Shown here in pieces: positions 1,759 to 51,449 of a stretch of 64,000 bases of DNA. Each line of letters opens with the position of its first letter. The stretch's first letter is position 1. This DNA is from Acidobacteriota bacterium (GTDB taxonomy: Bacteria > Acidobacteriota > Terriglobia > UBA7540): positions 83,537-147,536 of the forward strand of contig JAKCCV010000004.1 in NCBI GenBank assembly GCA_021838785.1, in the 5' to 3' direction. Under the pieces are notes generated by a model. That model worked only from the letters and a program-made list of their open reading frames with translations. It had not been told where the DNA came from and did no database searches. The translations under genes and the position numbers were made by a program.

Positions 1759-3243
1759 TCAAGGCTGGTTTTCGACCAACGTCGTTTTGGGATGAACCGG
1801 CAACAGCAAGGGCGGGCGGGCCGGCTGCGTAAAATCAAAATCACGCATCAGATTGCCGAGCATCGGACTATTTTCCCGCACGTAAGGCCTGGAATCGGGT
1901 CGGCCGTCGGTCGCGGGGTTCAGCCGCTGGCCGTGCAGAAAGATGTCTTCAATAAATTTGAGGTAGGCGTCGAAACTGAGCGGCTGATGGTCGATATATC
2001 CTCGCTTGGCGTAAGGACTAATCACCAGCCCCGGCACTCGGATGCCCCACCCGAGCGAATCCACGCGGGGAGGAACCACGTGGTCGTAAAACCCTCCCCA
2101 GTCGTCCCACGTGATAAAGATGGCGGTGCTCTTCCAGTCGGGGCTTTCCATCGCGGCATTCACTATCTTCGTCACGTAGGATTGCCCCACACTCACCTTG
2201 GCGGGAGGGTGCTCGCTATCTTCGCCATTGGGGGAAAACCATGCTACGGATGGAAGGGTTCCATCTTTGGCGGCCACAAAAAAGCGGCTAAGGTCCTCGA
2301 TATTGGCTGTTTGATGATCCTCATGGACATCCGTAAAGCCGGGCAGCACGTTCCAGATGACGGGGACACGCTTCACGCTCTCTTTGGCTTCCCTGAGCTT
2401 AGAGGCAAAGGGAGCGCTTTTCCCGACCTTTTTAGCTCCCTTGCTGCGGGGATGCCGTGGCAGCCACCCACCGTGGTCCAGGTAGTAAACCCAGCTCACA
2501 TGGTCTTTGTGCAACAGCCAGGTGATTTCTGTCCAGGCGAACGGTGTAGGATCTTTGCGAGTCCTATTCCTGGGCATAAGAGCGCTTACGCAGCTCATGG
2601 GGTTGTTGACTTGGCTGCAATTAGCTGCCCAGGCGGAAACAAGAAATAAGTGTGATGGGAAGCTCCAGGAGTGAACCGACTCAAACATATGATCCTGGAG
2701 CACAAAATGTTTCGCATAGGCCCAGTAGTTGGGGATATCTCCCGCGTCATGGTATCCCATGACTTGATCAGACTCTTCTGGGTCAGTGGGATGTTGGCAG
2801 TTCTGGCGAGGCCAAGCAAGAGGATTGAAACCGAAGTATCCCGCTGCCTGTACTTCTCTGATAAATCCATTCATCGCGCCGTTCGCGATGTCCGCCAAAG
2901 ACGCTTCCGCGGCGTGCGGGCCGCCGCAGTTCACATCGTCATGGTCGAGATAAGGTTTCACGCATTGGCCCGTCTTGGGATCGGGAACGCAGACCGTGGG
3001 CACGCCGTCCCGCATGGGAATACCGTCCGCCCCAGGGTAAGTGCCAAAGTAGGAATCAAAGGAGCGATTTTCCTGGAAAATGATAATGACGTGTTGGATG
3101 GGAAAATCTTTTCGGGGAGCTACGTCGGCCCTTGGGTTCGGCGCGCCGCCTTGAGCCATGCTGGCCGTGGCCGCGCTCAGGCTCATCAAAACGGCCAGTC
3201 CCACCCAAAGTCCATGAGAACAGCCGCAACCCATTTTTGCCAT
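1759..3243 (-). CDS. phosphoesterase family protein (phospholipase C / AcpA acid phosphatase type)
   Basis: Hallmark [24 protein letters not shown] near the N-terminus. Signal peptide [32 protein letters not shown] follows the ATG at 3243. The longer 649-aa ORF is probably upstream read-through. Confidence 0.85.
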
Positions 3244-3941
3244 TGCATCACCCCTTGTGCTAAACGTTGCTTCGTGAACGGCCCCATGCTGGCACCCTCG
3301 TTGGGCAATGTCAAGCCGTTCGCTGCGAAGCGGACAGGCTGCGATTGCCGCGCCTTGCCCAGAAGTTTTGGCCATGCTCCGGCTAAAGATGGGCGCGCGG
3401 CCGACATTCTGCAATCGTTGACAAACCCCGCAACGGATCGCGCCAACCGACCGCTCGGTCGGTGGCTGCCAACACCGTAAAAGACCATCCCCCCGCGCGT
3501 CAATTCGAGCAGCTTCTGCACGATTTGAGCCATCCGCGGCCCTACCGCCGTCGAAAGGAAAATTGACGGCCAACCACCAACTCACTGAATCGGCTTTGGT
3601 TAACTCACAGTATGCGAACGCTTGACTGATTGGCAACCAAGTTGCTCCCGTCGTAGTGGGCGCTGTGGCAGGGGTGGCGGTTCGCACCCCGTGATAGAAT
3701 CGGCTCACAACGCAGGCCGCTCACTCACCGTCGAGCAGCGTGTGCCGATAAATACTCCGTGTGACTTGATGCCCGGACGGTGGTCGCCGGAGCGCAGCTC
3801 TTGAAGTGGAGTCATTATTATTCCAAAATTGGTCAATGGACTGGGCAGAACGGCAGATTTAATCTCGGATCGCTTCAGCACGGCCCGCGAGGTTTAGAAA
3901 GCGGGGAGTTGAAAAATCATTTTAGAGGGAGGATAAGGAAT

Positions 3942-4493: not shown

Positions 4494-4772
4494 GCTCGGG
4501 CGTTTGACCGGGGTGGAGCGCGATGCAACGTCTCCGCCCCGGCCTGTCATCGTTTCCGCGTCCCAGGCCACAGAGCCTTGGCGGTTTTCTCAGCCACGCT
4601 CGCGCGACGGCTCCTCCGGCCGCGACCCGAGCATTCCCACCCTTGGGAGGCGAGGCGGCCGCCGCCGCTTCTTCCTTCATTCCCGTCCCTTCCCCTGCGC
4701 CTTCTCACCCCAAACGTTGTATAATGCCAGCTAGCTCGAGTCCAAGACCGCAGGGGACGGCGAGGTGGATGC

Positions 4773-6875: not shown

Positions 6876-7171
6876 CGCTGTTTGGGCCGGCCTCAACCTG
6901 CGTCACGGCCGGTTGCTCGACGTGGGCCGGTGAATCGTCGTGGCCAAGGTTTTTTCCCATGCGCCACCGTTGACAGGAGAATGGGTTGGCGCGGGCCGTC
7001 CCTCGACCCAGGAACCACCGCCTAAAATCGTGTCGCACGGTCTCCTGCCTCCAGTACTTTCGTACTATGGCCTCGGCGGCGCGAGCGCTTAAAATCGGCG
7101 TATCGAAAGGGGTTGCTTTTCGCTCGGAAGCGCGCTACAGTGGCGCAATTAACGAAGGCAGGGAGGGCTTT

Positions 7172-9190
7172 ATGCATCGTCATTTCAACGCCACGGTAAT
7201 TGGCGCCATAGCTTTTTTGACGGCCTGTGGCATGGCCTTGGCGGGTGGCCAAGAGCCTCGACCGGGCACCGTCATTGTTCCTCCATCGAACGTCGAGCGG
7301 CCGCAAGACATCGGCAAGCGCTCGCACACCAATTTCTTGATCTTTATTCCCGCCGCGCGAAGCGGCAAGCAACCCGCGCCCGCTACCAGTTCAGGGCCCA
7401 GCGGCGAAACGCCGCCGTCGCTCGCTTGCGTTTATCAGACGGCCTCCACGCTCGCTTCAGGATGCCCCATCATTAACTCCCCAACGAGCAGCGAACCGGA
7501 TGCCTCGGGCGGCTCGAACGTCATTGCCATCGTGGATGCCTATGACGATCCGACCGCGGCGAGCGATTTCCAGACCTTCTCTCAGCAATTCGGCCTGCCT
7601 TACGGCGACGAGTGCGGCCCCAACAAGAACGCAGCCTGCTTTACCAAAGTTTACGCCACCGGCTCGCAGCCCAAGGCCAATTGCAGTTGGGCGCAGGAAG
7701 AATCGCTCGACATCGAGTGGTCTCACGCCATGGCGCCCTACGCCCAAATCATCTTGGTCGAGGCCGCATCGAACAGCAACAGCAACCTCATGCAAGCCGT
7801 GAGTGTGGCCAACAACCTCGTCAGCACCTGCGACGGCCTTTGCTCTTCCGGTGGCACGGGCGAAGTTTCCATGAGCTGGGGCAGCAGCGAATTCTCCACT
7901 GAATCCACCTTCGACTCCTACTTCACAACCCACGGCGTCACTTACTTCGCTTCGAGCGGCGATAGCGGAGGCCAAGTCATTTGGCCCTCCGCTTCGCCCA
8001 ACGTCGTCTCGGCCGGCGGCACCACCATCGGTCGTGATTCAAGCGGAAGCTTCACCGGCGAGACGACATGGACGGATGCCGGCGGCGGCCCGAGCAGCTA
8101 CGAGGCCATGCCGGGCTACCAGCAAGTCATCTCCGACATCAACACGTCGGGCATGAGAGGAACGCCGGACTTGTCCTTTGACGCCAACCCCGCTTCCGGC
8201 GTCTCCGTCTATGACAGCACGTCGTGCCAAGGTCTGGTCGGCTGGCTGGTTTTTGGCGGCACAAGCGTGGCCGCGCCCTCGCTTTCCGGCATCGTCAATG
8301 ACGCCGGGGCTTTTGACGGCGGCTGGGACGGCGGCAGCAATTCCTCAAGCGTACAAAGCAATCTCTACTCAAACTACGGGACGGATACCGATTTTAGTAC
8401 TGACCCAACTACCTGCTCCTATACATCCTCGACGCCGTTTTACGACATCACTACCGGCTCGGCAGGCACCTATCCCGCCACCGCTTGCTGGGATTTTGCG
8501 AGCGGCATCGGAAGCGACCGTGGATTGACCGGATTCAATCCGCCATCGAGCACGGCAGGCTTCTCCTTGTCAGCCTCGCCTTCAACTCTGACGCTGACCG
8601 CAGGCTCAACCACTTCAGCAACCAGCACCATCAGCATGACCGCCTCCGGCGGGTTCAGTGGAACCGTCACGCTCAGCGCCAGCGCGCCGAGCGGCTCCGG
8701 CCTAACCGTAAGCCTCAGCCCAACCTACATATCGGGCTCAGGAACATCCACGTTGACGGTCGGCGCGGGCACAGCAACAGCGGGCACTTACACCGTCGCG
8801 GTAACCGGGACCAGCAGCGGTTTCCCCAGCAGCACGACGGACGTTACTGTGACCGTTAGCCCCTCTAGCTCTTCGCCGACGGTTTCTTCCGTCACCCTCA
8901 GCCCCTCGAGCGTCACCGGTGGCACATCATCCACGGGAACCGTCACACTCACTGCCGCTGCGTCCTCCGGTGGCGCCGTCGTGTCGCTCACCAGCAGCAA
9001 TACCTCCGTTGCGTCGGTCCCCAGCAGCGTCACGGTCAGCGCCGGCTCAACAAGCGCGAGCTTCACCGTTACGACCAGCGCGGTAACGACTCAAACCAGC
9101 GTGACGATTACAGCCAGCTACAACAACTCAAGCGCCAGCGCCACGCTGACCGTCAAGCCACCGCATGGCCACGGGAACAAGCAACACTAG
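7172..9190 (+). CDS. secreted S53 (sedolisin/kumamolisin-like) or S8/S53 serine peptidase with Ser/Thr-rich Ig-like C-terminal repeats
   Basis: ATG at 7172 with signal peptide. VIAIVDAYD, ASSGDSGG and GGTSVAAPSLSG motifs. Long C-terminal S/T-rich beta-repeat region. Confidence 0.7.
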   Translation: MHRHFNATVIGAIAFLTACGMALAGGQEPRPGTVIVPPSNVERPQDIGKRSHTNFLIFIPAARSGKQPAPATSSGPSGETPPSLACVYQTASTLASGCPIINSPTSSEPDASGGSNVIAIVDAYDDPTAASDFQTFSQQFGLPYGDECGPNKNAACFTKVYATGSQPKANCSWAQEESLDIEWSHAMAPYAQIILVEAASNSNSNLMQAVSVANNLVSTCDGLCSSGGTGEVSMSWGSSEFSTESTFDSYFTTHGVTYFASSGDSGGQVIWPSASPNVVSAGGTTIGRDSSGSFTGETTWTDAGGGPSSYEAMPGYQQVISDINTSGMRGTPDLSFDANPASGVSVYDSTSCQGLVGWLVFGGTSVAAPSLSGIVNDAGAFDGGWDGGSNSSSVQSNLYSNYGTDTDFSTDPTTCSYTSSTPFYDITTGSAGTYPATACWDFASGIGSDRGLTGFNPPSSTAGFSLSASPSTLTLTAGSTTSATSTISMTASGGFSGTVTLSASAPSGSGLTVSLSPTYISGSGTSTLTVGAGTATAGTYTVAVTGTSSGFPSSTTDVTVTVSPSSSSPTVSSVTLSPSSVTGGTSSTGTVTLTAAASSGGAVVSLTSSNTSVASVPSSVTVSAGSTSASFTVTTSAVTTQTSVTITASYNNSSASATLTVKPPHGHGNKQH

Positions 9191-9350: not shown

Positions 9351-9375
9351 GTGGCACGGCCATCTTGGCCGTGCT
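9351..9375. repeat. REP-like palindromic element, copy 1
   Basis: gtggcacggccatcttggccgtgct. 9-bp perfect stem gcacggcca/tggccgtgc with a 3-nt loop. Identical 25-mer at 13972-13996. Confidence 0.7.
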
Positions 9376-9440
9376 TTCCCGTGGACGCGGCCTTCCTGCC
9401 CCTCGTATAAAAATATGCCGCGTCTAACGGCTTTTGATGA

Positions 9441-13971: not shown

Positions 13972-13996
13972 GTGGCACGGCCATCTTGGCCGTGCT
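13972..13996. repeat. REP-like palindromic element, copy 2
   Basis: Same 25-mer as 9351-9375, located between the convergent CRTAC1-like and csp genes. Confidence 0.7.
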
Positions 13997-14072
13997 CTCG
14001 CGGGGCGCACACCTCGCCCTCGTTTTGCCTCAAACCTCATTTCGGCGCGGGAGGGGTCCCGGGAAAATCCGC

Positions 14073-14936: not shown

Positions 14937-15223
14937 GTAGCGCAGAGGTTGCGCGTCGCAACCTCTGCGGCTCGTGCCGGTGCCCGCCGGAAAAAACCGC
15001 AGAGTTTCCGAACGCGTAACCCCGCGCGACGCAGGCGATCCATTGGCCGTTGGGCGAGACTGATGGGCGGCAGCAAGGCAGGTTCGTAATCTTTCGCTCC
15101 GCGCCGCCTGGCCCGGTTAAAATCCTCCCGTGCGGGGTCTCGATTTCCTCGGTTGCCTTTCGCCCTCAGGCTTCCTTCGTGCCCCCCACCATGACCGCTT
15201 CCCGCAGGTTCGCGCACGTGCCC
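14937..15223 (+). repeat. ~290-bp hairpin-headed repeat, copy A (full length)
   Basis: Aligns by eye over its whole length with 17854-18145, at roughly 90 percent identity. Begins with a perfect 13-bp stem, cgcagaggttgcg-cgt-cgcaacctctgcg (14941-14969). Confidence 0.85.
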
Positions 15224-15236
15224 GACGCGGCAGCAG

Positions 15237-15331
15237 GTAGCGCAGAGGTTGCGCGTCGCAACCTCTGCGGCTCGTGCCGGTGCCCGCCGGAAAAAACCGC
15301 AGAGTTTCACACTCCGCAACCGCGCGCGACG
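15237..15331 (+). repeat. ~290-bp repeat, copy B (head only, about 95 bp, tandem to copy A)
   Basis: Repeats the first ~95 bp of the element (hairpin plus ccgcagagtttc...cgcgcgacg), 13 bp after copy A ends. Confidence 0.85.
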
Positions 15332-15611
15332 TGCTGGGCCGTTCAACCCTTGCGCCCGTCGAGCTGGCCGCCGTCCATTCTTGGCCAAGCCTGACTGCCG
15401 CGGCCGACGCCACAAGCGCCGCAGAGCAGCGCCAACGACGCGCGCCTCTGCGCTGCGGGCTCAAAAGAAAAGTCTCCTGCACCTTCAAAAGAAAAAACCT
15501 CTTGAAGTCCAAGAGAGAATCTACCCGCTTCAGGCCGCGAAGATTTCCGCCGCCCCCGCACCACGCCGCGCTCTTTACAGCCGCCAAAGCTGAACATATA
15601 CTCGGTGAGAC

Positions 15612-16931
15612 ATGGGACACGCCGGGACAGAGCTGGGCGCGCCAGCGATCGGTGGGGAACGGAGCGAGGACACGTTCCGCACGCTCGCGGCGTTGCTTCG
15701 CCGAGACCTGGATTTTGGCTCCTCGGACAGCGGCTATGCGTCCCATGCCATCCACCCCTTCGCCGCAAAGTTCCCGCCGCAGATCCCGCGCTTATTCATC
15801 GAGGAGCTCACGCAGAGCGGGGATTCCGTCCTCGATCCGATGGCCGGTTCCGGCACAACCATCGTCGAGGCGCTCATGCTCAGGCGAGAGGCCTTTGGCT
15901 TTGATATTGACCCCTTAGCCGTCAGGTTGTGCACTGTGAAGACGACCTGGCTAGACCCTGTGGACCTCCAAAGGCGCTGTCTAGCGATCATCGAGGACGC
16001 GTTAGACATGGGGAAGTCGGGTTCGCACCTTCGCCGTGAACTTGAGACCCGCTACGACGCGGAGACCAGAAAGTTCATAGACTACTGGTTCCTCCCCGAG
16101 ACACAGTTGGAGCTTCTGGCCCTCGTGCTAGCTATTGAGAGGGTCAGCGAGCCAGCCCCGCGCGGCTTTTTCGAGTTGGTCCTGTCCTCGACCATCATCG
16201 CGAAAACAGGGGGGGTCTCGATGGCCCGCGACCTGGCCCATTCGAGACCCCACCGCGACCCAGCCAAGAACCCGCGCAACGCTATCACCGAATTCCGACT
16301 CAGGTCAGCAAAGGCGCTCAAGAAGTTTCAGAACCTCCCGCAGCGCGTGAAAAAGGTCTTCGTTGCGGAACGCGACGCAAGGAACCTGCCCCTGCCGACA
16401 GGCTCGATTGACCTCGTCGTGACATCTCCCCCCTATGCCAATGCGCTCGACTACATGCGGGCGCACAAGTTCAGCCTGGCGTGGCTGGGATACCCCCTCC
16501 GAGCCCTGAGCGCCTTGCGGGGAAGGTACATCGGGAGCGAAAACCTCCACGGCGGTCCCACCGGCGAACTGCCGAGGAGGTCCGCCGCCGCCGTGCGCGC
16601 ACTCGCGGAGAGGGACGCAAGGAAGGCGAAGGTCTTGGCGAAGTACCTCGGCGAAATGAGAGATGCGCTCGCCGAAACGAACCGCGTCCTGAAGCCCGGC
16701 AAGGGGGCGGTCCTCGTTGTCGGGCCGTCCATAATGCGGGGAGTGCCTATCCTCACACACGAGTACCTCGCAGAAATCGGGAGCTCCGTGGGATTCCGAC
16801 TCGCCGGAGTCCAGAAACGAAGAATTGACCGCGACCGCAGAATGCTCCCTGTAAGCCTCGACCGTAACGGCCACTCGACGATCGAGCAGCGGATGCACGA
16901 GGAGTACGTGGTCGGGCTGGTCAAGGAATAA
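15612..16931 (+). CDS. type II DNA methyltransferase, N4-cytosine/N6-adenine (SPPY) class
   Basis: AdoMet motif I VLDPMAGSGTTIVEA, then catalytic motif IV DLVVTSPPYANALDY. Also HAIHPFAAKFPPQIP and RVLKPGKGAVLVVG. Confidence 0.85.
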   Translation: MGHAGTELGAPAIGGERSEDTFRTLAALLRRDLDFGSSDSGYASHAIHPFAAKFPPQIPRLFIEELTQSGDSVLDPMAGSGTTIVEALMLRREAFGFDIDPLAVRLCTVKTTWLDPVDLQRRCLAIIEDALDMGKSGSHLRRELETRYDAETRKFIDYWFLPETQLELLALVLAIERVSEPAPRGFFELVLSSTIIAKTGGVSMARDLAHSRPHRDPAKNPRNAITEFRLRSAKALKKFQNLPQRVKKVFVAERDARNLPLPTGSIDLVVTSPPYANALDYMRAHKFSLAWLGYPLRALSALRGRYIGSENLHGGPTGELPRRSAAAVRALAERDARKAKVLAKYLGEMRDALAETNRVLKPGKGAVLVVGPSIMRGVPILTHEYLAEIGSSVGFRLAGVQKRRIDRDRRMLPVSLDRNGHSTIEQRMHEEYVVGLVKE

Positions 16932-16946
16932 AGGCGGCCCCGCGCG

Positions 16947-17834
16947 ATGCCTGCCACAATCCGTGACCAAAAGCTGTCCGAGCTGAGGACGCAGTACCAC
17001 GCGAAGATACTCTCAAAACTTCTGGGCAGACGCGGCCCCGCGGGAGCATTCTCGAACGCCGACTCGGGGAGCAAGGCGAGTAAGGAAATCGCTGAGCGCA
17101 TGGCCCAAAGACTTTCCGCCCAAACGCACAACAGCCCGTGCAGGAAGCTTCCGAGCGAGCAGACCCTTGGCAATGTTTTCGCAAGGCTTACGGAGGAATT
17201 TTTGGAAGCCGCCTTCCGACGCCTACACCACCTCCGCCCCGGAGACTGGGTGTTTTCCACGAGCCAGGATACCAAGGGCATCAGCAGACACCATCAGTAT
17301 GAGCACTTGGCGCAACTTGAAGACCTTTTAAGGCAACATCCTGAACTGAGGTCCACACTCGGGGGCGACTACCTGATTACCCCCGACATCACGGTGTCGC
17401 GCCGACCCGTGAGCGACCAAGAAATCAACCGCCGCGGGGACTTTGTGGACGGTTCTGAGCAGCTCGCCAACCACGCCCCGCTGCGCGAGGCGGTGAACAA
17501 GACCACAATCCTCCATGCAAGCATTTCGTGCAAGTGGACCATTCGGAGCGACCGGGCGCAAAACACTCGCACGGAGGCACTCAACCTGATCAGGAACCGA
17601 AAAGGGAAGGTTCCGATTGTCGCCGCGGTGACCTTCGAGCCACTGCCGACCCGGCTTGCCTCCATCGCGCTGGGCACGGGCGACCTGGACTGCACTTACC
17701 ACGGCGCTCTCAACGAGCTCGCCGCGGCAGTGGACGGGACGGGAAACCCGGATCAGAGGGAAATGCTCGACACGCTCGTCCACGGTAGGCGGCTCCGCGA
17801 CATCAGCGACCTGCCGTTCGATCTCGCTACCTAG
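16947..17834 (+). CDS. type II restriction endonuclease, NgoMIV/Cfr10I-like family
   Basis: From memory it aligns along the length of R.NgoMIV: LRPGDW, GGDYLITPDITVSR, LHASISCKWTIRSDRAQN, LNLIRNRKG, IALGTGDLDCTYH, GRRLRDISDLPFDLA. Starts 15 nt after the methyltransferase stop. Confidence 0.8.
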   Translation: MPATIRDQKLSELRTQYHAKILSKLLGRRGPAGAFSNADSGSKASKEIAERMAQRLSAQTHNSPCRKLPSEQTLGNVFARLTEEFLEAAFRRLHHLRPGDWVFSTSQDTKGISRHHQYEHLAQLEDLLRQHPELRSTLGGDYLITPDITVSRRPVSDQEINRRGDFVDGSEQLANHAPLREAVNKTTILHASISCKWTIRSDRAQNTRTEALNLIRNRKGKVPIVAAVTFEPLPTRLASIALGTGDLDCTYHGALNELAAAVDGTGNPDQREMLDTLVHGRRLRDISDLPFDLAT

Positions 17835-17853: not shown

Positions 17854-18145
17854 GTAACACAGAGGTTGCGCGGTGCAACCTCTGCGGCTCGTGCCGGCGC
17901 CCGCCGGAAGGACCCGCAGAGTTTCACACTCCGCAACCCCCGCGCGACGCAGGCGATCCATTGGCCGTCGGGCGAGACTGATGGGCGGCAGCAAGGCAGG
18001 TTCGTAATCTTTCGCTCCGCGCCGCCTGGCCCAGTTAAAATCCTCTCGTGCGGGGCTCTCGATTTCCTCGGTTGCCTTTCGCCGTCGGACTTCCTTCGTG
18101 CCCTTCCCCACCATGACTGCTTCCCGCGGGTTTGCGCACGTGCCC
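17854..18145 (+). repeat. ~290-bp hairpin-headed repeat, copy C (full length)
   Basis: Same orientation as copy A. Together A/B and C bracket the R-M gene pair. Confidence 0.85.
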
Positions 18146-18199
18146 AAGGCCGCAGAAATTGAACTTGGACCACCCCCGGTGGCGCCGGCGAGTCAAGCT

Positions 18200-18442
18200 C
18201 CGCCGGCCGGGGCTGCGAGGCGAGCCGACGGTTAGGGATCGTTCGAGGGTTGGAGCGCCCAGCGGTTTTTCCTGAGAAAGTCTTCCACCAAGCCCATGTC
18301 GGAGGAACCGCACAGAATCAACCGGCACAGCTCATCCGCTTGCCCGACGCGCGGATCCACCTTGGCGGCTTGCTGATAAACCTCCCGAGCTTGGCGCGGG
18401 TGTTTCTCTTTCCACAGGGCGATGGCTTGGAGCACGAGCGCG
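18200..18442. repeat. 243-bp direct repeat D1 (duplicate of the TPR gene 3' end)
   Basis: Near-identical to 19783-20024. By eye there are three substitutions and one 1-nt indel. Confidence 0.9.
18232..18442 (-). pseudogene. 3' fragment of the TPR-repeat gene (duplicate of the last ~70 codons of 19814-20929)
   Basis: Translation LVLQAIALWKEKHPRQAREVYQQAAKVDPRVGQADELCRLILCGSSDMGLVEDFLRKNRWALQPSNDP is identical to the C-terminus of the intact TPR protein. It has no N-terminal part. Confidence 0.85.
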
Positions 18443-18487
18443 ACCATGAGGGAGGCTGCCCGCGCTCAACGAAGAGGCGGGAGGAAG

Positions 18488-19279
18488 CTACTTGCGCTCG
18501 GCGATCCCCTCCCGCACCAACCCTTCGTCGAGCCGGCTGAGAGCGTTTCCCGGGACCGCAAGATCAGCACTCTGTTCCAGTATCTTAGTGCTTTCGGAGG
18601 ACCACTTGGTAGAAATGACATCGTACACCAATCCGACCTTGAGCTTAGGATTTGCCTGCCTAATATCGCCAGCCTTGAATCCCCACGCCTCCGCCGTAAG
18701 GTGCGCGTTTGATCCTGATAGTATCGCAATGGCAATGCCAGGTCTGCCGTTGGGCGGAATCAGGAAATCAACCGAATGTTTCTCTATCCTCCCTCGTACC
18801 TTGTCCCGTTCCCTGTAAGGAAGACTCCTCCTGCCCAGCACGTCTTTAACCTCTCGCACCAAATCCTCTTCCTTCGCTAGGAATTTTGGCCTATACGTAA
18901 GATAGACATCGCCGACCGTCTTGGCCGCCTCCACAAATTTCTGGATACTTAATCCCAATTCGTCGCGCCTCGACTCCAAGATCATGTAGTTTTCTTTGAA
19001 GGTTAGCCCGTAAGACTTCGCAAGCTCTTCTAGCCTCGACACCGTGCTGGCTTGAACTTCATGCCCTGCGTTGCGGAGTTCCTCTATCGTCCTTGCCATA
19101 TCCGAAACTATGTACTGGTCATCAGAGACGCGCGTCACGGCGACCTCGATGCGGTGATCCGCCGAGTAATGAAAAGGAAAGGAAATGAGGACACTCCCGC
19201 CCTCTAAGGGCTCAGCCTCGATGAGGCCGCGATAGCTTTGCAAATAGGTAGAAAGCACCGAATCAAGGAGGGTGTTCAT
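18488..19279 (-). CDS. DUF1828/DUF1829-like two-domain protein (uncharacterised)
   Basis: The N-terminal half (ISFPFHYSADHRIEVAVTRVSDDQYIVSDMARTIEELRNAG...) and the C-terminal half (VRGRIEKHSVDFLIPPNGRPGIAIAILSG...WGFKAGDI) fit the patterns I associate with DUF1828 and DUF1829. No HMM was run. Confidence 0.55.
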   Translation of the reverse strand: MNTLLDSVLSTYLQSYRGLIEAEPLEGGSVLISFPFHYSADHRIEVAVTRVSDDQYIVSDMARTIEELRNAGHEVQASTVSRLEELAKSYGLTFKENYMILESRRDELGLSIQKFVEAAKTVGDVYLTYRPKFLAKEEDLVREVKDVLGRRSLPYRERDKVRGRIEKHSVDFLIPPNGRPGIAIAILSGSNAHLTAEAWGFKAGDIRQANPKLKVGLVYDVISTKWSSESTKILEQSADLAVPGNALSRLDEGLVREGIAERK

Positions 19280-19740
19280 TCTAACCTCAATTCATCCTGG
19301 ATTTGTTCGACCTCAATGTTCCATTTGTCGAGCCCCCACTGAAACACTCCCCGCAGGTCGGCCCCTCCAACTCGGGGTCGCGCAGGTATTACCCGTGCGT
19401 CAGCATCCTCATCGTTCCAAATGTGCTCGTGCCACCCGCGCACCACCGTCCCGTCCGGATTGTCGTGCCTGATTTCATAATCTAGGCCCCGTATTCGGCA
19501 TCCGTGCCAAAGTAGGGAACACGACGCCTTGCCGCGCGGCAGGCCAGGTAAACGCCTTTTCACGCGAGCCTTTACTATCAGCCCTCCGGTCACGGCCCGG
19601 GGATCGTCCCTCATTCTAACCTCCGCTTCGATTATTGACCATCCGCTCTCTTCTACAACCGCTGGAATCGCCAAGATCTGCTTCCTCGAGCCGACAAGAT
19701 AATCAGCCTCGCTCTCCGTGAATTTGCGCCGCTGCCCCAT
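19276..19740 (-). CDS. hypothetical protein, no family recognised (His-rich block YEIRHDNPDGTVVRGWHEHIW)
   Basis: 154-aa ORF. Its stop overlaps the start of the downstream DUF1828/1829-like gene (ATGA, 19276-19279). Same strand as the TPR gene just upstream. Confidence 0.55.
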   Translation of the reverse strand: MGQRRKFTESEADYLVGSRKQILAIPAVVEESGWSIIEAEVRMRDDPRAVTGGLIVKARVKRRLPGLPRGKASCSLLWHGCRIRGLDYEIRHDNPDGTVVRGWHEHIWNDEDADARVIPARPRVGGADLRGVFQWGLDKWNIEVEQIQDELRLE

Positions 19741-19782
19741 CTCCGGCGCGCAACTCTACTACCGATTGACCCCAATCGCAAG

Positions 19783-20024
19783 CCGCCGGCCGGGGCGCGA
19801 GGCGAGCCGACGGTTAGGGGTCGTTCGAGGGTTGGAGCGCCCAGCGGTTTTTTCTGAGAAAGTCTTCCACCAAGCCCATGTCGGAGGAACCGCACAGAAT
19901 CAACCGGCACAGCTCATCCGCTTGCCCGACGCGCGGGTCCACCTTGGCGGCTTGCTGATAAACCTCCCGAGCTTGGCGCGGGTGTTTCTCTTTCCACAGG
20001 GCGATGGCTTGGAGCACGAGCGCG
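19783..20024. repeat. 242-bp direct repeat D2 (native 3' end of the TPR gene)
   Basis: Partner of D1 at 18200-18442. Confidence 0.9.
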
Positions 20025-28535: not shown

Positions 28536-28611
28536 GCCGCGGTAGCTCAGGTGGTAGAGCGCAGCCCTGAAAAGGCTGGCGTCGGCGGTTCAACTCCGTC
28601 CCGCGGCACCA
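28536..28611 (+). tRNA. tRNA-Phe (anticodon GAA)
   Basis: Acceptor stem GCCGCGG/CCGCGGC. D-arm TAGCTCAGGTGGTAGAGC. Anticodon stem-loop CAGCC-CTGAAAA-GGCTG. T-arm GGCGGTTCAACTCCGTC. CCA is encoded. Confidence 0.92.
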
Positions 28612-29019
28612 TCTTTTCAAGCACTTAGCCCGCATTTCTCAGAGAAGAATTGAAAAGGGGCTGTCGCTTCATGGCATAAGTGAAAAACTTGGACCCAAGA
28701 AGGAGGGCGCCTTTTGCAGATACGGGGTAACCAAAAATCCTTCCAATTCCATCCCCGTTTTCATCGCGAGGTGCGGGGCCGGAAGTAGCGGCTGGCCAAC
28801 CGTAGGTTGGCCAGCCAGCGTTTTTGGCGGGCCTTACGCCGGGACATAGCCTGCTCGAAGAATCAGGTCGGCGGCGCGGAAGATCCGTCGGCCTGGCTTC
28901 CTGAATGCCTTCGCATCCAAATCGAACGTGAGCTGTCGAAGCCAACATCTCGAATTTTATTTAGAAATCAAGGCTGTGCGGAAGTCAAAAGAGTGCATTT
29001 TGGACTGAGAAAGACTACT

Positions 29020-29562
29020 ATGTGGGCCATGGGAGCGACTATCGTGAAAACCGGATCGGTAGCCGAAAGTGAAAGCCGGCCGCATCCCGTTTACGAAACG
29101 AACCTGGGCAAAATGTATCTCGGTAAATCGGAGGAATTGCTCCTTCGGCATCCTCTCTGCCTTAAGAGGAATCAGGTTCAGCTAATTTTCACTTCCCCGC
29201 CGTTCCCGAAACCGTTTCCTAAGTCTGGAATTTTCCCTTTTCTGGAGGTTGAAACGGCCGCTCTCGGACGCTCGCTCGTCACCGTGGCCCTCCCAGCCTT
29301 TATCTCCCCGCTCGGGGCGTGCGCAAAGCGGACTCCTAAGTTTTCCCATTGCAAGTCGCCCAGCTATGAGGGCATCTGCGATCCTTACGTGCCGGGAACA
29401 ATCATCATGTTCAGGAACAAGAAGCCGATCCTGGTCATCAACGCCTGGCAGGACCGACCCGATGAGGGCAGAGCTGACCGGGAAGTGCTGGCTAGGGTGA
29501 GCGCAGGCCGCAGCGACGGGCGAAGTATTCGAATGATGAGTTTCGCCTCGTCGCAGTGTTGA
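29020..29562 (+). pseudogene. decayed N4/N6 DNA methyltransferase remnant
   Basis: YETNLGKMYLGKSEELL...VQLIFTSPPFP is a typical N-terminal target-module/motif IV of beta-class SPPF methyltransferases. No AdoMet FxGxG motif follows, the sequence degenerates, and the ORF runs into the convergent gene at 29492. The region looks lower in GC. Confidence 0.4.
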
Positions 29563-30019
29563 TGTCGAAATGCCTCAGAACCTCAACCATGTAGTCAATT
29601 CTGGAATCAAAATTGTCCGGCAGGGTGCTCTGGAAGCCTTCTTTCGTGACCCGGCTGGTGTCCTTTGGCACGCTCACGCCCAGCGGATTATTGTCCGCCA
29701 GCCCGGCCAAGTACCAGCTTTCGATCTCGCTCACGACGACGAGGACGTGGTGGGTGTCCAGCCCACGGAACCTCTGTGACAGGCTCTCTTTTTTCTTTGT
29801 GGGGCACGGGTGCGAGTTGATGTCCGCAAGGAGAAAATAATCGGCACCCATCGCCTTAACGCTTCGCAGGAAGGAGTCCACCTTCTCATTCTTTTGCCGC
29901 GCATACTTCCAGATTTCGATGCAGTCGTAGCGCGAACTGAGTCCGGGGATGGCGATGCGCTCCACAAACCGCTCATCGTCATCGCCTTCGACCAGCAGAA
30001 AAAGTCTTTTGTGGGGCAT
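29492..30019 (-). CDS. small Toprim-like protein (DUF4276/DUF4435-like)
   Basis: N-terminal LFLLVEGDDDERFVERI (OLD-type Toprim VEGxxD motif), then YFLLADINS and VVVSEIESWYLAGL acidic motifs. Starts 1 nt after the stop of the upstream ATPase gene. Confidence 0.6.
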   Translation of the reverse strand: MPHKRLFLLVEGDDDERFVERIAIPGLSSRYDCIEIWKYARQKNEKVDSFLRSVKAMGADYFLLADINSHPCPTKKKESLSQRFRGLDTHHVLVVVSEIESWYLAGLADNNPLGVSVPKDTSRVTKEGFQSTLPDNFDSRIDYMVEVLRHFDINTATRRNSSFEYFARRCGLRSP

Positions 30020-30020
30020 T

Positions 30021-31283
30021 TCAGGCGTGAAGCAGGTTCTGAGCGAACAACTCGTCGAGGCCCATCTCGTTCCTGAGAAAAACCTTCACGTCTTCTCTCT
30101 CCGCCGGGCGGGTGATCGTGGAAAAGCCTTCCGCGTCCCTCGAAACCAAGAGCACGTCTTCGATATCGGCGCTTCTGACAACCTCGGGGTTATGGGTCGT
30201 GACGATAATCTGCTTGTGCCGCGAAGCGTCTTTCATCATTTTAACCACGCGCGAGATCAGGTGCGGATGAATGTTGCGCTCCGGCTCCTCGATGACGGCA
30301 ACGGGCTTCCGCTCGAAGTAGAGTGCAACAATGAGCGCAGTGACGTTGAGGGTCCCGTCGGAGAGCAGCGAAGCAGGGAGAGACTTCTTCTTCGTGTAGG
30401 TCTCCTTCAGGCTGAAAAGGAGCGATTTGTCGGCAAATCTCTCGACGTCCAAGCTGGCCACGAATGGGAGCAGGTCTTGTAAGAGGTTGGCGAGCTTCCG
30501 CTTGCTGGTACCGTCCTCATTGATTTTCCTGAGAACAATTGCCAGGTTGTTGCCATCCTCTTCCAGTTCTGCCTTGCCCGTAATGGGCGTAGCCTTCTTG
30601 GGGAGCTTAGGATCGAAGTCGTAGATCGCAGCGTCCCTCAGGGAAGGACCAGCGCGGAATAGACTTAGTTCCATGATTAGCGACCGGCGCGGGACGTTTG
30701 GCGGCGCGAACCAGGGGGCGATCTCGTACTGCTCCAAGGTCACGCCCTGGGGCGGCTTGAGTTCCGCGCTCACCTTTTCCCCATCCCTCGTGACGAGCAC
30801 CTCGCCCTTGCCATGGCGTTGCCCGGGTTTGGCCCCTCGGTCCCCCGGCCCGACGGCAACGAAGTTGCCTTTGACTGATAACCGCTCGTCCACGACCTCA
30901 AACGCTTCTCTCCGTTTTCCAGTGGCAAGCGAGAAGCTGTGCGCGATTTCCGCGTCCGCCAGACCGATATAAATGTCCCGGGCTTTGGACCTTGCGACCA
31001 CCTCCACATCAGTCCGTCCAGACCCTGCGACCTCAACGTTGAGATTCTCTCCGGCTCCGATGTTGAGGTTCGTCAGGTACTCGGGGCCGCCCTGCATCTG
31101 GATCGCGTTGTTCAAGCCGTGGCGCTGAATATCCCGAAGGAACTCGATGATGCGGATAAAGTTCGACTTTCCGGAGGCGTTCGCCCCGATCAAGACGTTG
31201 AAGTCACCCAGGCGGACTTCCACGTCCTTGAAGCTCTTGAAGTTCTTAACCCGGATTGTCTTGATGGCCATCCGGCTCCCCAC
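30021..31283 (-). CDS. ABC/SMC-like ATPase (AAA_15/AAA_21 type)
   Basis: IRVKNFKSFKD...VLIGANASGKSNF (Walker A). LSDGTLNV (signature). PVAVIEEPERNIHPHL (Walker B/D-loop). IIVTTHNPEV (H-loop). An alternative ATG at 31271 (MAIKTIRV) is equally plausible. Confidence 0.85.
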   Translation of the reverse strand: MGSRMAIKTIRVKNFKSFKDVEVRLGDFNVLIGANASGKSNFIRIIEFLRDIQRHGLNNAIQMQGGPEYLTNLNIGAGENLNVEVAGSGRTDVEVVARSKARDIYIGLADAEIAHSFSLATGKRREAFEVVDERLSVKGNFVAVGPGDRGAKPGQRHGKGEVLVTRDGEKVSAELKPPQGVTLEQYEIAPWFAPPNVPRRSLIMELSLFRAGPSLRDAAIYDFDPKLPKKATPITGKAELEEDGNNLAIVLRKINEDGTSKRKLANLLQDLLPFVASLDVERFADKSLLFSLKETYTKKKSLPASLLSDGTLNVTALIVALYFERKPVAVIEEPERNIHPHLISRVVKMMKDASRHKQIIVTTHNPEVVRSADIEDVLLVSRDAEGFSTITRPAEREDVKVFLRNEMGLDELFAQNLLHA

Positions 31284-50700: not shown

Positions 50701-50951
50701 GCAACCCGCAAGCTCTGGTCTGGCTGTGAGGCAGTAATGAATAACTCACATGAAATGTGAAGGAGAAGGTAGATTCCTTATGCAGGGCAATTCGGTGTAT
50801 GCGACTGCGGTCGAAAAGCTCCGTAAGGCTCATGAAGAGTGGAAAAAGGATCCTGAGACTATTTCCCAGCTCCTTGACGCCAAGGAAAGATGAAGTGCTC
50901 CCCAAAATTTGGACAGGCGTCTAAGGTGTAAAATCGCTGCCTCCGAGAGGA

Positions 50952-51133
50952 GGCAAAAAGAAGCGAGCATACATTCAGTACAGCCCCGAGGGGAAAGCCA
51001 AGATTGACCTGGAGGCAATTAAAGGTCAGCAGACGATTCAGCAGATTGCCTCGCATTACGAATTCATCCGAACCTGGTGACCCACTGGAAGAAGCAGTTG
51101 CTGGAGGGGGCGGCGGAGATTTTCGCCAACGGC
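50952..51133 (+). pseudogene. IS3-family transposase orfA fragment (frameshifted and truncated)
   Basis: GKKKRAYIQYSPEGKAKIDLEAIKGQQTIQQIASHYE, then after a 1-nt frameshift IHPNLVTHWKKQLLEGAAEIFANG. This matches the conserved IS3 OrfA HTH region (...EYGVHPNQVSxWKKQLLEGAAExF). It breaks off at about 51133. Confidence 0.65.
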
Positions 51134-51134
51134 C

Positions 51135-51449
51135 CGGCAGCAGCGTCGTGCGCCGCAACTTGTCGTGATCGTTCAAATCTTCATAGCCCAACGCTAGCGC
51201 ATAGACACGCTGCGCGACTAACTCCCACACCGTGTGCCCGATCTGCTCCGCCGCGCGATGGTCTCGAAAGCAGTCCGCGAAACGCGCCATGATCCTCGTC
51301 TGCTGCTCTACCTCGCGCCGCAGCAGCCCGGCCGCGTCCGTCGTGATCTCCCCGCCGTCAAACCGGCCTCGCACCTCGCCTTGAAAGTGGGGATGAAATT
51401 GGAAGGATGCTTGGTTACACTGCCTCGCCGATCGCCCAGAACCGGCCAT
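51135..51449 (-). mobile_element. IS1380-family transposase N-terminal fragment (about 100 codons). The IS 5' end probably extends toward ~51740.
   Basis: RFDGGEITTDAAGLLRREVEQQTRIMARFADCFRDHRAAEQIGHTVWELVAQRVYALALGYEDLNDHDKLRR matches the conserved IS1380 N-terminus. No DDE domain follows. It abuts the IS3 fragment. Confidence 0.6.

Follow-up and report, generated by a model that had tools for sequence, protein, structure and literature searches.

A 64,000-nucleotide (nt) stretch of the uncultured Acidobacteriota bacterium assembly GCA_021838785.1 (contig JAKCCV010000004.1, positions 83,537 to 147,536; hereafter the window) carries a gene for a 383-amino-acid (aa) TPR-repeat protein whose 3' end is present twice, once as the functional gene end and once as an orphan copy farther downstream (Table 1). 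The two copies enclose an insert of 1.33 kb with two co-oriented genes that overlap by 4 nt and match the PADLOC candidate system PDC-M24. The original prediction, made from the letters of the window, had read this arrangement as the attL/attR-like footprint of an element that entered the 3' end of a gene and brought a replacement copy with it, with a homology-mediated cassette exchange as the alternative. We compared the locus with related genomes and with other PDC-M24 loci, and suggest that it records an insertion driven by recombination, within a spacer that differs from one relative to the next.

The duplicated TPR gene end and the cassette it encloses

A repeat search identified 18210-18442 and 19792-20024, which are 98% identical in an ungapped comparison, as the longest repeat of the whole 64-kb window. 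In a gapped alignment the repeat widens to 18200-18442 versus 19783-20024, and the copies differ by three substitutions and one 1-nt indel, just as had been counted by eye. If a 2-nt indel is permitted at the outer edge, the repeat gains four more bases and reaches 18194 and 19779. Its length is 243-249 nt (~245 nt below), with 98.4% identity between the copies. All three substitutions are synonymous third-position transitions, while the 1-nt indel falls in the non-coding tail. The original prediction also named the right copy as the true end of the TPR gene and the left copy as an orphan with the same C-terminal peptide, and both assignments hold: the stop codon (19814-19816) and a tail of 31-35 nt lie inside the right copy, and the left copy is called by gene callers as a 71-aa open reading frame (ORF; 18232-18447) because an ATG (18445-18447) happens to adjoin the repeat, just beyond its edge. 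The coordinates likewise reproduce the proposed order, with the intact TPR end on the gene side and the orphan beyond the cassette. The inner edge of the duplication lies at an unremarkable position within the TPR coding sequence, and the predicted TPR protein is unaltered by the insertion.

The two cassette proteins, of 154 aa (DUF6978) and 263 aa (DUF1828), match the PDC-M24 A and B profiles with E values of 6e-5 and 6.7e-15, respectively; the A match is weak and covers the conserved motif alone. PDC-M24 is a candidate defence system by genomic association only, and no paper found by a literature search mentions it. The family is rare, with 23 and 16 database clusters, and the closest relatives of the cassette proteins are 63% and 62% identical, the former being the nearest relative of PDC-M24B. 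A sequence search of the PDB with both proteins gave no match. AlphaFold2 models are confident (predicted local distance difference test, pLDDT, 86 and 89). For the 263-aa model, the weak PDB fold matches are mostly to PD-(D/E)xK nucleases (Can2, R2 restriction-like endonuclease, AF1548, NucS and BbvCI; best E 7.6e-4), a theme that is consistent although each match is weak. The 154-aa model (pLDDT 89, predicted template modelling score 0.84) is beta-rich, its RHDNPDG...RGWHEH motif is invariant, and it has no PDB fold match at E < 0.5; its fold may be uncharacterised.

The cassette differs in composition from its surroundings, with a GC content of 55.5% versus 66% for the TPR gene, and a GC content at third codon positions of 0.62-0.63 versus 0.75-0.82 in neighbouring genes. 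Since neither a promoter-like nor a terminator-like site was detected between the TPR gene and the cassette, the latter is probably transcribed through read-through from TPR. A repeat search found neither inverted nor direct repeats at the cassette ends. The original prediction had also noted that no integrase is present, and we find no integrase or transposase Pfam match among the genes annotated between ~4.1 kb and ~31.4 kb of the window, about 11 kb on each side.

The TPR-STAS spacer and PDC-M24 pairs in other genomes

Two relatives show what the locus looks like without the insert. The closer one, the Acidobacteria metagenome-assembled genome (MAG) YP1.bin18 (L014), is ~94% identical at the nucleotide level in the flanking DNA and has a TPR orthologue with 93% aa identity; the other, L038, is more distant (TPR 60% aa identity). 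In both, the TPR 3' end is single-copy and the PDC-M24 cassette is absent, so that they provide empty sites, for which the original prediction had proposed to look. Because of this, the cassette is, on sequence comparison, an insertion relative to related genomes. The gene order in L038 is conserved (TonB receptor, 143-aa gene, TPR, STAS, cold-shock protein, FG-GAP, cytochrome), and its TPR and STAS genes stand 187 nt apart with no repeat units and no cassettes between them. In L014, the single TPR 3' end is followed by three tandem ~192-nt units (B units) without genes between them, then by a different two-gene cassette, another B unit and STAS. Of the two proteins of this second cassette (2971-3923, minus strand), one (109 aa) weakly matches PBECR2 (barnase/EndoU/RelE-like nuclease, E 1.3e-4) and the other (214 aa) matches no family; they possibly form a toxin-antitoxin-like pair, and the cassette is bracketed by B-unit repeats of ~165-190 nt. 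The TPR-STAS spacer thus measures 0.19 kb in L038, 2.2 kb in L014 and 5.0 kb in the window. As the spacer of L014 holds a different cassette and the gap in L038 is merely 187 nt, we regard the spacer, from these comparisons, as a small variable islet.

Within the window, the islet holds a second cassette directly left of the orphan TPR copy. It consists of a type II restriction-modification pair that has a promoter-like site to itself (15574-15602), and its position between ~300-nt A units makes it, from its layout, a textbook-looking 'long direct repeat' cassette. L014 has nothing that corresponds to the 202-nt part specific to the A units and therefore shows no empty site for the restriction-modification cassette. 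The 38-nt spacer that separates the orphan tail from the next repeat unit has no match in L014, in L038 or in the rest of the window. Long direct repeats derived from local sequence enclose each cassette seen in the TPR-STAS spacer, with another repeat for each: the 245-nt TPR end for the PDC-M24 pair, the ~300-nt A units for the restriction-modification pair and the ~165-190-nt B units for the pair in L014. The original prediction did not include this context, in which the PDC-M24 pair has a second repeat-bracketed defence cassette next to it and the spacer varies among relatives.

Table 1. Features of the TPR-STAS spacer and its borders (window coordinates; L014 is the related genome YP1.bin18)
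Feature	Position	Strand	Remarks
STAS-domain gene, 121 aa	14438..14803	-	Other conserved border of the variable spacer
A unit, copy a	14937..15233	-	89.7% identical to copy c; right bracket of the restriction-modification cassette; core matches the STAS-proximal core of L014
B unit	15237..15454	-	Counterpart of the first tandem ~192-nt unit directly after TPR in L014
Type II restriction-modification pair	15612..17834	+	N6/N4 methyltransferase 15612-16931; NgoMIV-family endonuclease 16947-17834, Pfam E 1e-100
A unit, copy c, ~300 nt	17854..18155	-	202-nt specific part and 95-nt hairpin core; left bracket of the restriction-modification cassette
Unique 38-nt spacer, orphan tail to next repeat unit	18156..18193	.	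GCCGGC at 18184
Left repeat copy, orphan TPR 3' end	18194..18442	-	Identical peptide
45 nt separating cassette stop codon from orphan copy	18443..18487	.	Begins at the putative illegitimate joint 18442/18443
Cassette gene 2, 263 aa	18488..19279	-	DUF1828 / PDC-M24B-like
Cassette gene 1, 154 aa	19276..19740	-	DUF6978 / PDC-M24A-like; conserved RHDNPDG...RGWHEH motif
Right repeat copy, functional TPR gene 3' end	19779..20024	-	~69 last codons, TAA stop and tail
TPR-repeat gene, 383 aa	19814..20965	-	Pfam TPR families; conserved border of the variable spacer

The A and B units all end in a 95-nt core that folds as a long imperfect hairpin and includes a perfect 12-bp palindrome (GCAGAGGTTGCG nnn CGCAACCTCTGC). 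There are three cores in the window (14937-15031, 15237-15331 and 17854-17948) and four in L014 (2417-2512, 2610-2705, 2803-2896 and 4270-4366), with folding z-scores of -3.7 to -5.0 relative to shuffled sequence. A covariance model built from these seven copies found no further core in the 134 kb searched, which confines the core to the TPR-STAS spacer. The core shows no covariation, its copies being too few and too similar, and an Rfam search of 13.5-21.5 kb gave no match at E <= 1. Another hairpin element, which is short and rich in GC (GTGGCACGGCCATCTTGGCCGTGC...), is intergenic at 9351-9384 and 13972-14005 of the window and at 4143-4190 of L014, and resembles a repetitive extragenic palindromic (REP)-type repeat.

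Outside this locus, the PDC-M24 genes are kept together as a two-gene module in unrelated contexts, as seen at three loci. The pair adjoins outer-membrane and Mla genes in a Terriglobia MAG (L033), lies within an element that carries a phage-type integrase as a PDC-M24-like pair (L036, GCA_009712145.1), and has a DDE transposase near it at L037. The cassette region of L036 is bracketed by the 3' end of an intact HTH_17 gene (142 aa) and an orphan 3' end (4604-4726 and 7140-7262), a different gene's end than the one repeated in the window. These end copies share 80% nt identity. Differences at 16 of 96 nt comprise nine synonymous and five non-synonymous codon changes and leave the frame intact, a pattern which shows that the copies diverged as working genes before coming to lie side by side. 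Flanking repeats are absent from the PDC-M24 loci L037 and L039, and L033 is cut by a contig end. We therefore rejected flanking repeats as a general trait of PDC-M24 loci, given their presence at L036 and absence at L037 and L039.

Two further observations concern the wider window. A match to HEC-01, another PADLOC candidate, consists of a 416-aa ABC-type ATPase and a 175-aa partner (29492-31271, minus strand; E 1e-52 and 2e-6) and forms a third defence-like locus ~8.5 kb from the TPR gene, beyond FtsK. In addition, a tRNA-Phe gene (28536-28611) is followed ~115 nt later by one arm (28727-28782) of a 56-nt inverted repeat with 86% complementarity, whose other arm (51363-51418) lies 22.6 kb away in the 5' end of a truncated ORF (50859-51449) resembling an IS4/IS1380-type transposase. 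These arms may be remnants of insertion sequences, or they may mark the limits of an old inversion or island; the window contains no second copy of the tRNA-Phe 3' end.

Origin of the duplication

We propose, with a probability of roughly 0.6, that the ~245-nt repeat is the scar of a recombinational insertion, which placed a foreign 1.33-kb PDC-M24-like cassette just downstream of the TPR gene within a variable defence islet. The incoming DNA would have borne a TPR 3' end together with the cassette. It could have been circular, integrating by a single Campbell-type homologous crossover within the TPR 3' end, or linear, with a homology anchor in TPR and an illegitimate joint at its far end (homology-facilitated illegitimate recombination), the latter being equivalent to the stacking of two alternative spacer alleles. 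Both routes would require host homologous recombination and one illegitimate joint at 18442/18443, with no integrase, and both would yield an intact gene end, then the cassette, then the displaced orphan end. The junction at 18442/18443 is the only one without an explanation by homology. The topology fits homology-facilitated illegitimate recombination with this single non-homologous junction, at which an assessment of microhomology would need the donor sequence. The three synonymous changes are suggestive of copies that diverged as working gene ends in two lineages (p about 0.06, a rough estimate). Once formed, the repeat would allow RecA-dependent recombination between its copies to remove the cassette, scarlessly because both copies encode the same peptide, and the deletion would free a circle able to re-integrate in any close relative.

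The interpretation given in the original prediction is therefore partly supported: an insertion with a replacement gene end fits the locus, driven by recombination rather than by an integrase. Its alternative, a homology-mediated cassette exchange, comes closer to the evidence than the attL/attR-like footprint; the event that we favour is an insertion with a long duplication.

Several points weigh against a recombinational insertion. No strain-level allele that lacks only the PDC-M24 cassette was found, as all contigs with identical proteins, retrieved by exact-protein look-ups with a cassette protein, STAS, TPR, the 142-aa neighbour, the cold-shock protein and the endonuclease, have the same arrangement; a scan of JGI metagenomes with TPR gave a best relative of only 41% identity. 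No donor of the cassette was found either, with the nearest cassette relative only 63% identical and no plasmid or phage match. A total of three synonymous changes does not suffice for a firm test. L014 and L038 disagree on the direction of change at the four differences between the repeat copies, and because of this disagreement donor and recipient copies are not separable and no crossover point can be placed, so that the precise alignment from which the original prediction had hoped to locate the crossover did not deliver one, even with polarisation. Identity to L014 along TPR, scanned for an imported tract, showed no pattern. Finally, the PDC-M24 loci without flanking repeats (L037 and L039) indicate that the duplication belongs to this event and not to the cassette. 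A variant-pattern test for a Campbell crossover was dropped, as a pattern of at most one switch always fits and half of random patterns have that, which deprives the test of power.

The strongest alternative to a recombinational insertion, which we nevertheless consider unlikely, is a long target duplication made in situ. Staggered breaks ~245 nt apart in the resident chromosome would have been filled so that the TPR end was copied on both sides, leaving copies that were identical at insertion and diverged afterwards; a restriction enzyme may have introduced or favoured the breaks, an idea that Kobayashi's group put forward for restriction-modification systems. The topology equals that of published cases (PMC2853133), and the 98.4% identity agrees with a recent event. 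Moreover, an NgoMIV-family endonuclease is encoded 0.4 kb away, and its presumed target, GCCGGC, occurs in each repeat copy 2 nt in from the outer edge (18202-18207 and 19785-19790) and again at 18184-18189. However, GCCGGC is common in the window (76 sites in 64 kb versus 65 expected, ~one per 840 nt) and is not avoided, so its placement near the repeat edges may be chance and serves as a lead only. Neutral decay of an orphan would also predict mostly non-synonymous changes, while three of three are synonymous, and the parallel copies at L036 clearly diverged under selection. Staggered breaks 245 nt apart have no demonstrated mechanism.

We find it improbable that the cassette entered by site-specific integration, in which an unlinked integrase would have acted in trans on a small element and inserted it, together with a replacement end, into the TPR 3' end. 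Integrative elements bounded by attL and attR classically sit at a gene's 3' end and supply a replacement copy that keeps the gene intact, and the related module at L036 does lie in an element with a phage-type integrase. An attL/attR footprint is disfavoured here because no recombinase match lies within about 11 kb on either side, the cassette ends have no inverted or direct repeats, the inner edge is arbitrary in coding sequence and L037 and L039 have no flanking repeats. The ~245-nt duplication far exceeds the usual att cores in length and has no defined core, and the repeat at L036 is the end of another gene, so that no core is shared. The neighbouring cassettes are bracketed by other repeats, which argues against a common att site. 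On these grounds, this part of the original prediction was not borne out.

Another reading assigns the spacer itself an active role, as a dedicated, integron-like cassette array; an unlinked recombinase would act on the 95-nt hairpin cores, and the TPR-end duplication would be a by-product. We hold this to be very doubtful. As in clusters of integron attC sites without an integrase, similar structured hairpins of ~95 nt separate short segments and cassettes at one locus. The cores, three in the window and four in L014, occur only in this spacer, with cassettes sitting between units and cargo-less tandem units present in L014. In contrast to integrons, however, the attC boxes RYYYAAC and GTTRRRY are absent from the cores, as checked by eye, the cassettes do not all point the same way and the restriction-modification pair has a separate promoter-like site. 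The PDC-M24 cassette is neither flanked by cores nor contains any, the hairpin has no covariation support and no recombinase is seen nearby. Membership of the locus among integrative elements or integrons is thus not supported.

Least of all do we believe in an assembly artefact, a mis-join of strains or a mis-resolved repeat, which the source being a MAG and the breaking of contigs of other assemblies at the repeats might suggest, since the same arrangement recurs in at least seven contigs from different samples and assemblers, the four differences hold identical runs between the copies at no more than 88 nt, and the junction 18442/18443, from cassette end to mid-gene sequence, could not be produced by joining two simple alleles. 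The at least seven contigs, found by exact-protein look-ups in independent assemblies, include the NCBI MAG GCA_027389095.1 and ENA ERZ27237313, and they resolve the concern about an artefact, raised with the original prediction, in favour of a real repeat. The window sequence is identical to contig DAHYBP010000028.1 of GCA_027389095.1, and an ENA assembly of another sample has the same 15 kb with two single-nucleotide polymorphisms, so the population is nearly clonal. The longest identical run, 88 nt, falls short of the k-mer size implied by 'k141' in the contig names, which probably allowed those assemblers to distinguish the copies. Short contigs of other assemblies (L003, L006, L012 and L013) terminate inside or at the edges of the repeats, as is expected of a true repeat, and the junction between cassette and orphan copy is spanned by the independent 1438-nt contig L003 at 100% identity.

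Relation to known systems and implications

Insertion with long target duplication of restriction-modification genes was reportedly described by Nobusato and colleagues in 2000. In such cases, restriction-modification genes without mobility genes lie between repeats of 46 to ~420 bp that are single-copy in the genome without the insert; no mechanism has been established, and a virus-like cycle has been suggested in which the genes would insert, amplify and be released by way of the repeats (PMC2853133). The TPR locus resembles these cases in having a small cassette without mobility genes between direct repeats, in having the repeat as a single copy in a relative that lacks the insert, and in the overlap of the repeat with the 3' end of a neighbouring gene. 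Recombination between such repeats is expected to amplify or delete the cassette, as we predict here for its loss. Unlike those cases, the cargo is a DUF6978 and DUF1828 pair rather than a restriction-modification system, the host is an uncultured member of the Acidobacteria, a phylum that has received little study, and two or three such cassettes are found in one spacer. Set beside the definition of Furuta et al. 2010, the flanking direct repeats are longer than 30 bp (243-249 nt, 98.4%), the repeat is single-copy in related genomes that lack the insert (L014 and L038), and the insert is smaller than 20 kb (1.33 kb) with no integrase or transposase Pfam match within about 11 kb; the R and M homologues that the definition includes are not in the PDC-M24 cassette, whereas the adjacent cassette (15612-17834) has both. 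The NgoMIV-type pair between its ~300-nt repeats fits the published class more literally than the PDC-M24 cassette does.

A second parallel is found in the arrays of type VI secretion systems (T6SS), Rhs and contact-dependent inhibition (CDI), for whose displaced orphan 3' ends Kirchberger et al. 2017 (PMC5361080) proposed an origin by homology-facilitated illegitimate recombination. In these arrays, as we propose for the TPR locus, a module enters through homology in the conserved upstream part of a gene and displaces the earlier 3' end downstream, with no integrase. However, the 3' ends of Rhs, CDI and T6SS arrays are variable toxic cargo, each orphan with its immunity gene, while the duplicated end here is the near-identical end of a housekeeping gene and the cargo is a separate operon.

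It should be noted that the evidence on the locus comes from very few genomes and reveals no new mechanism; integrase-free insertion scars of this type have already been described for restriction-modification genes. We also considered a more far-reaching possibility, that the TPR-STAS spacer is a dedicated integrase-less site of cassette capture, where long duplications, and perhaps the cores, would allow RecA, or an unlinked and unknown recombinase, to cut cassettes out and integrate them again. This seems to us improbable; if true, the site would be a homologous-recombination-driven analogue of an integron for defence genes, and the TPR-end repeat would mark its latest capture.

How small defence systems move without mobility genes of their own is only partly understood, and the locus offers a clean natural example, in which the two genes of a conserved pair lie 187 nt apart in one relative and have different conflict cassettes between them in two further genomes. 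Based on our findings, the pattern of long target duplication extends to a candidate defence pair other than restriction-modification genes and to the Acidobacteria, and it predicts that the cassette would be gained and lost scarlessly in a RecA-dependent manner.

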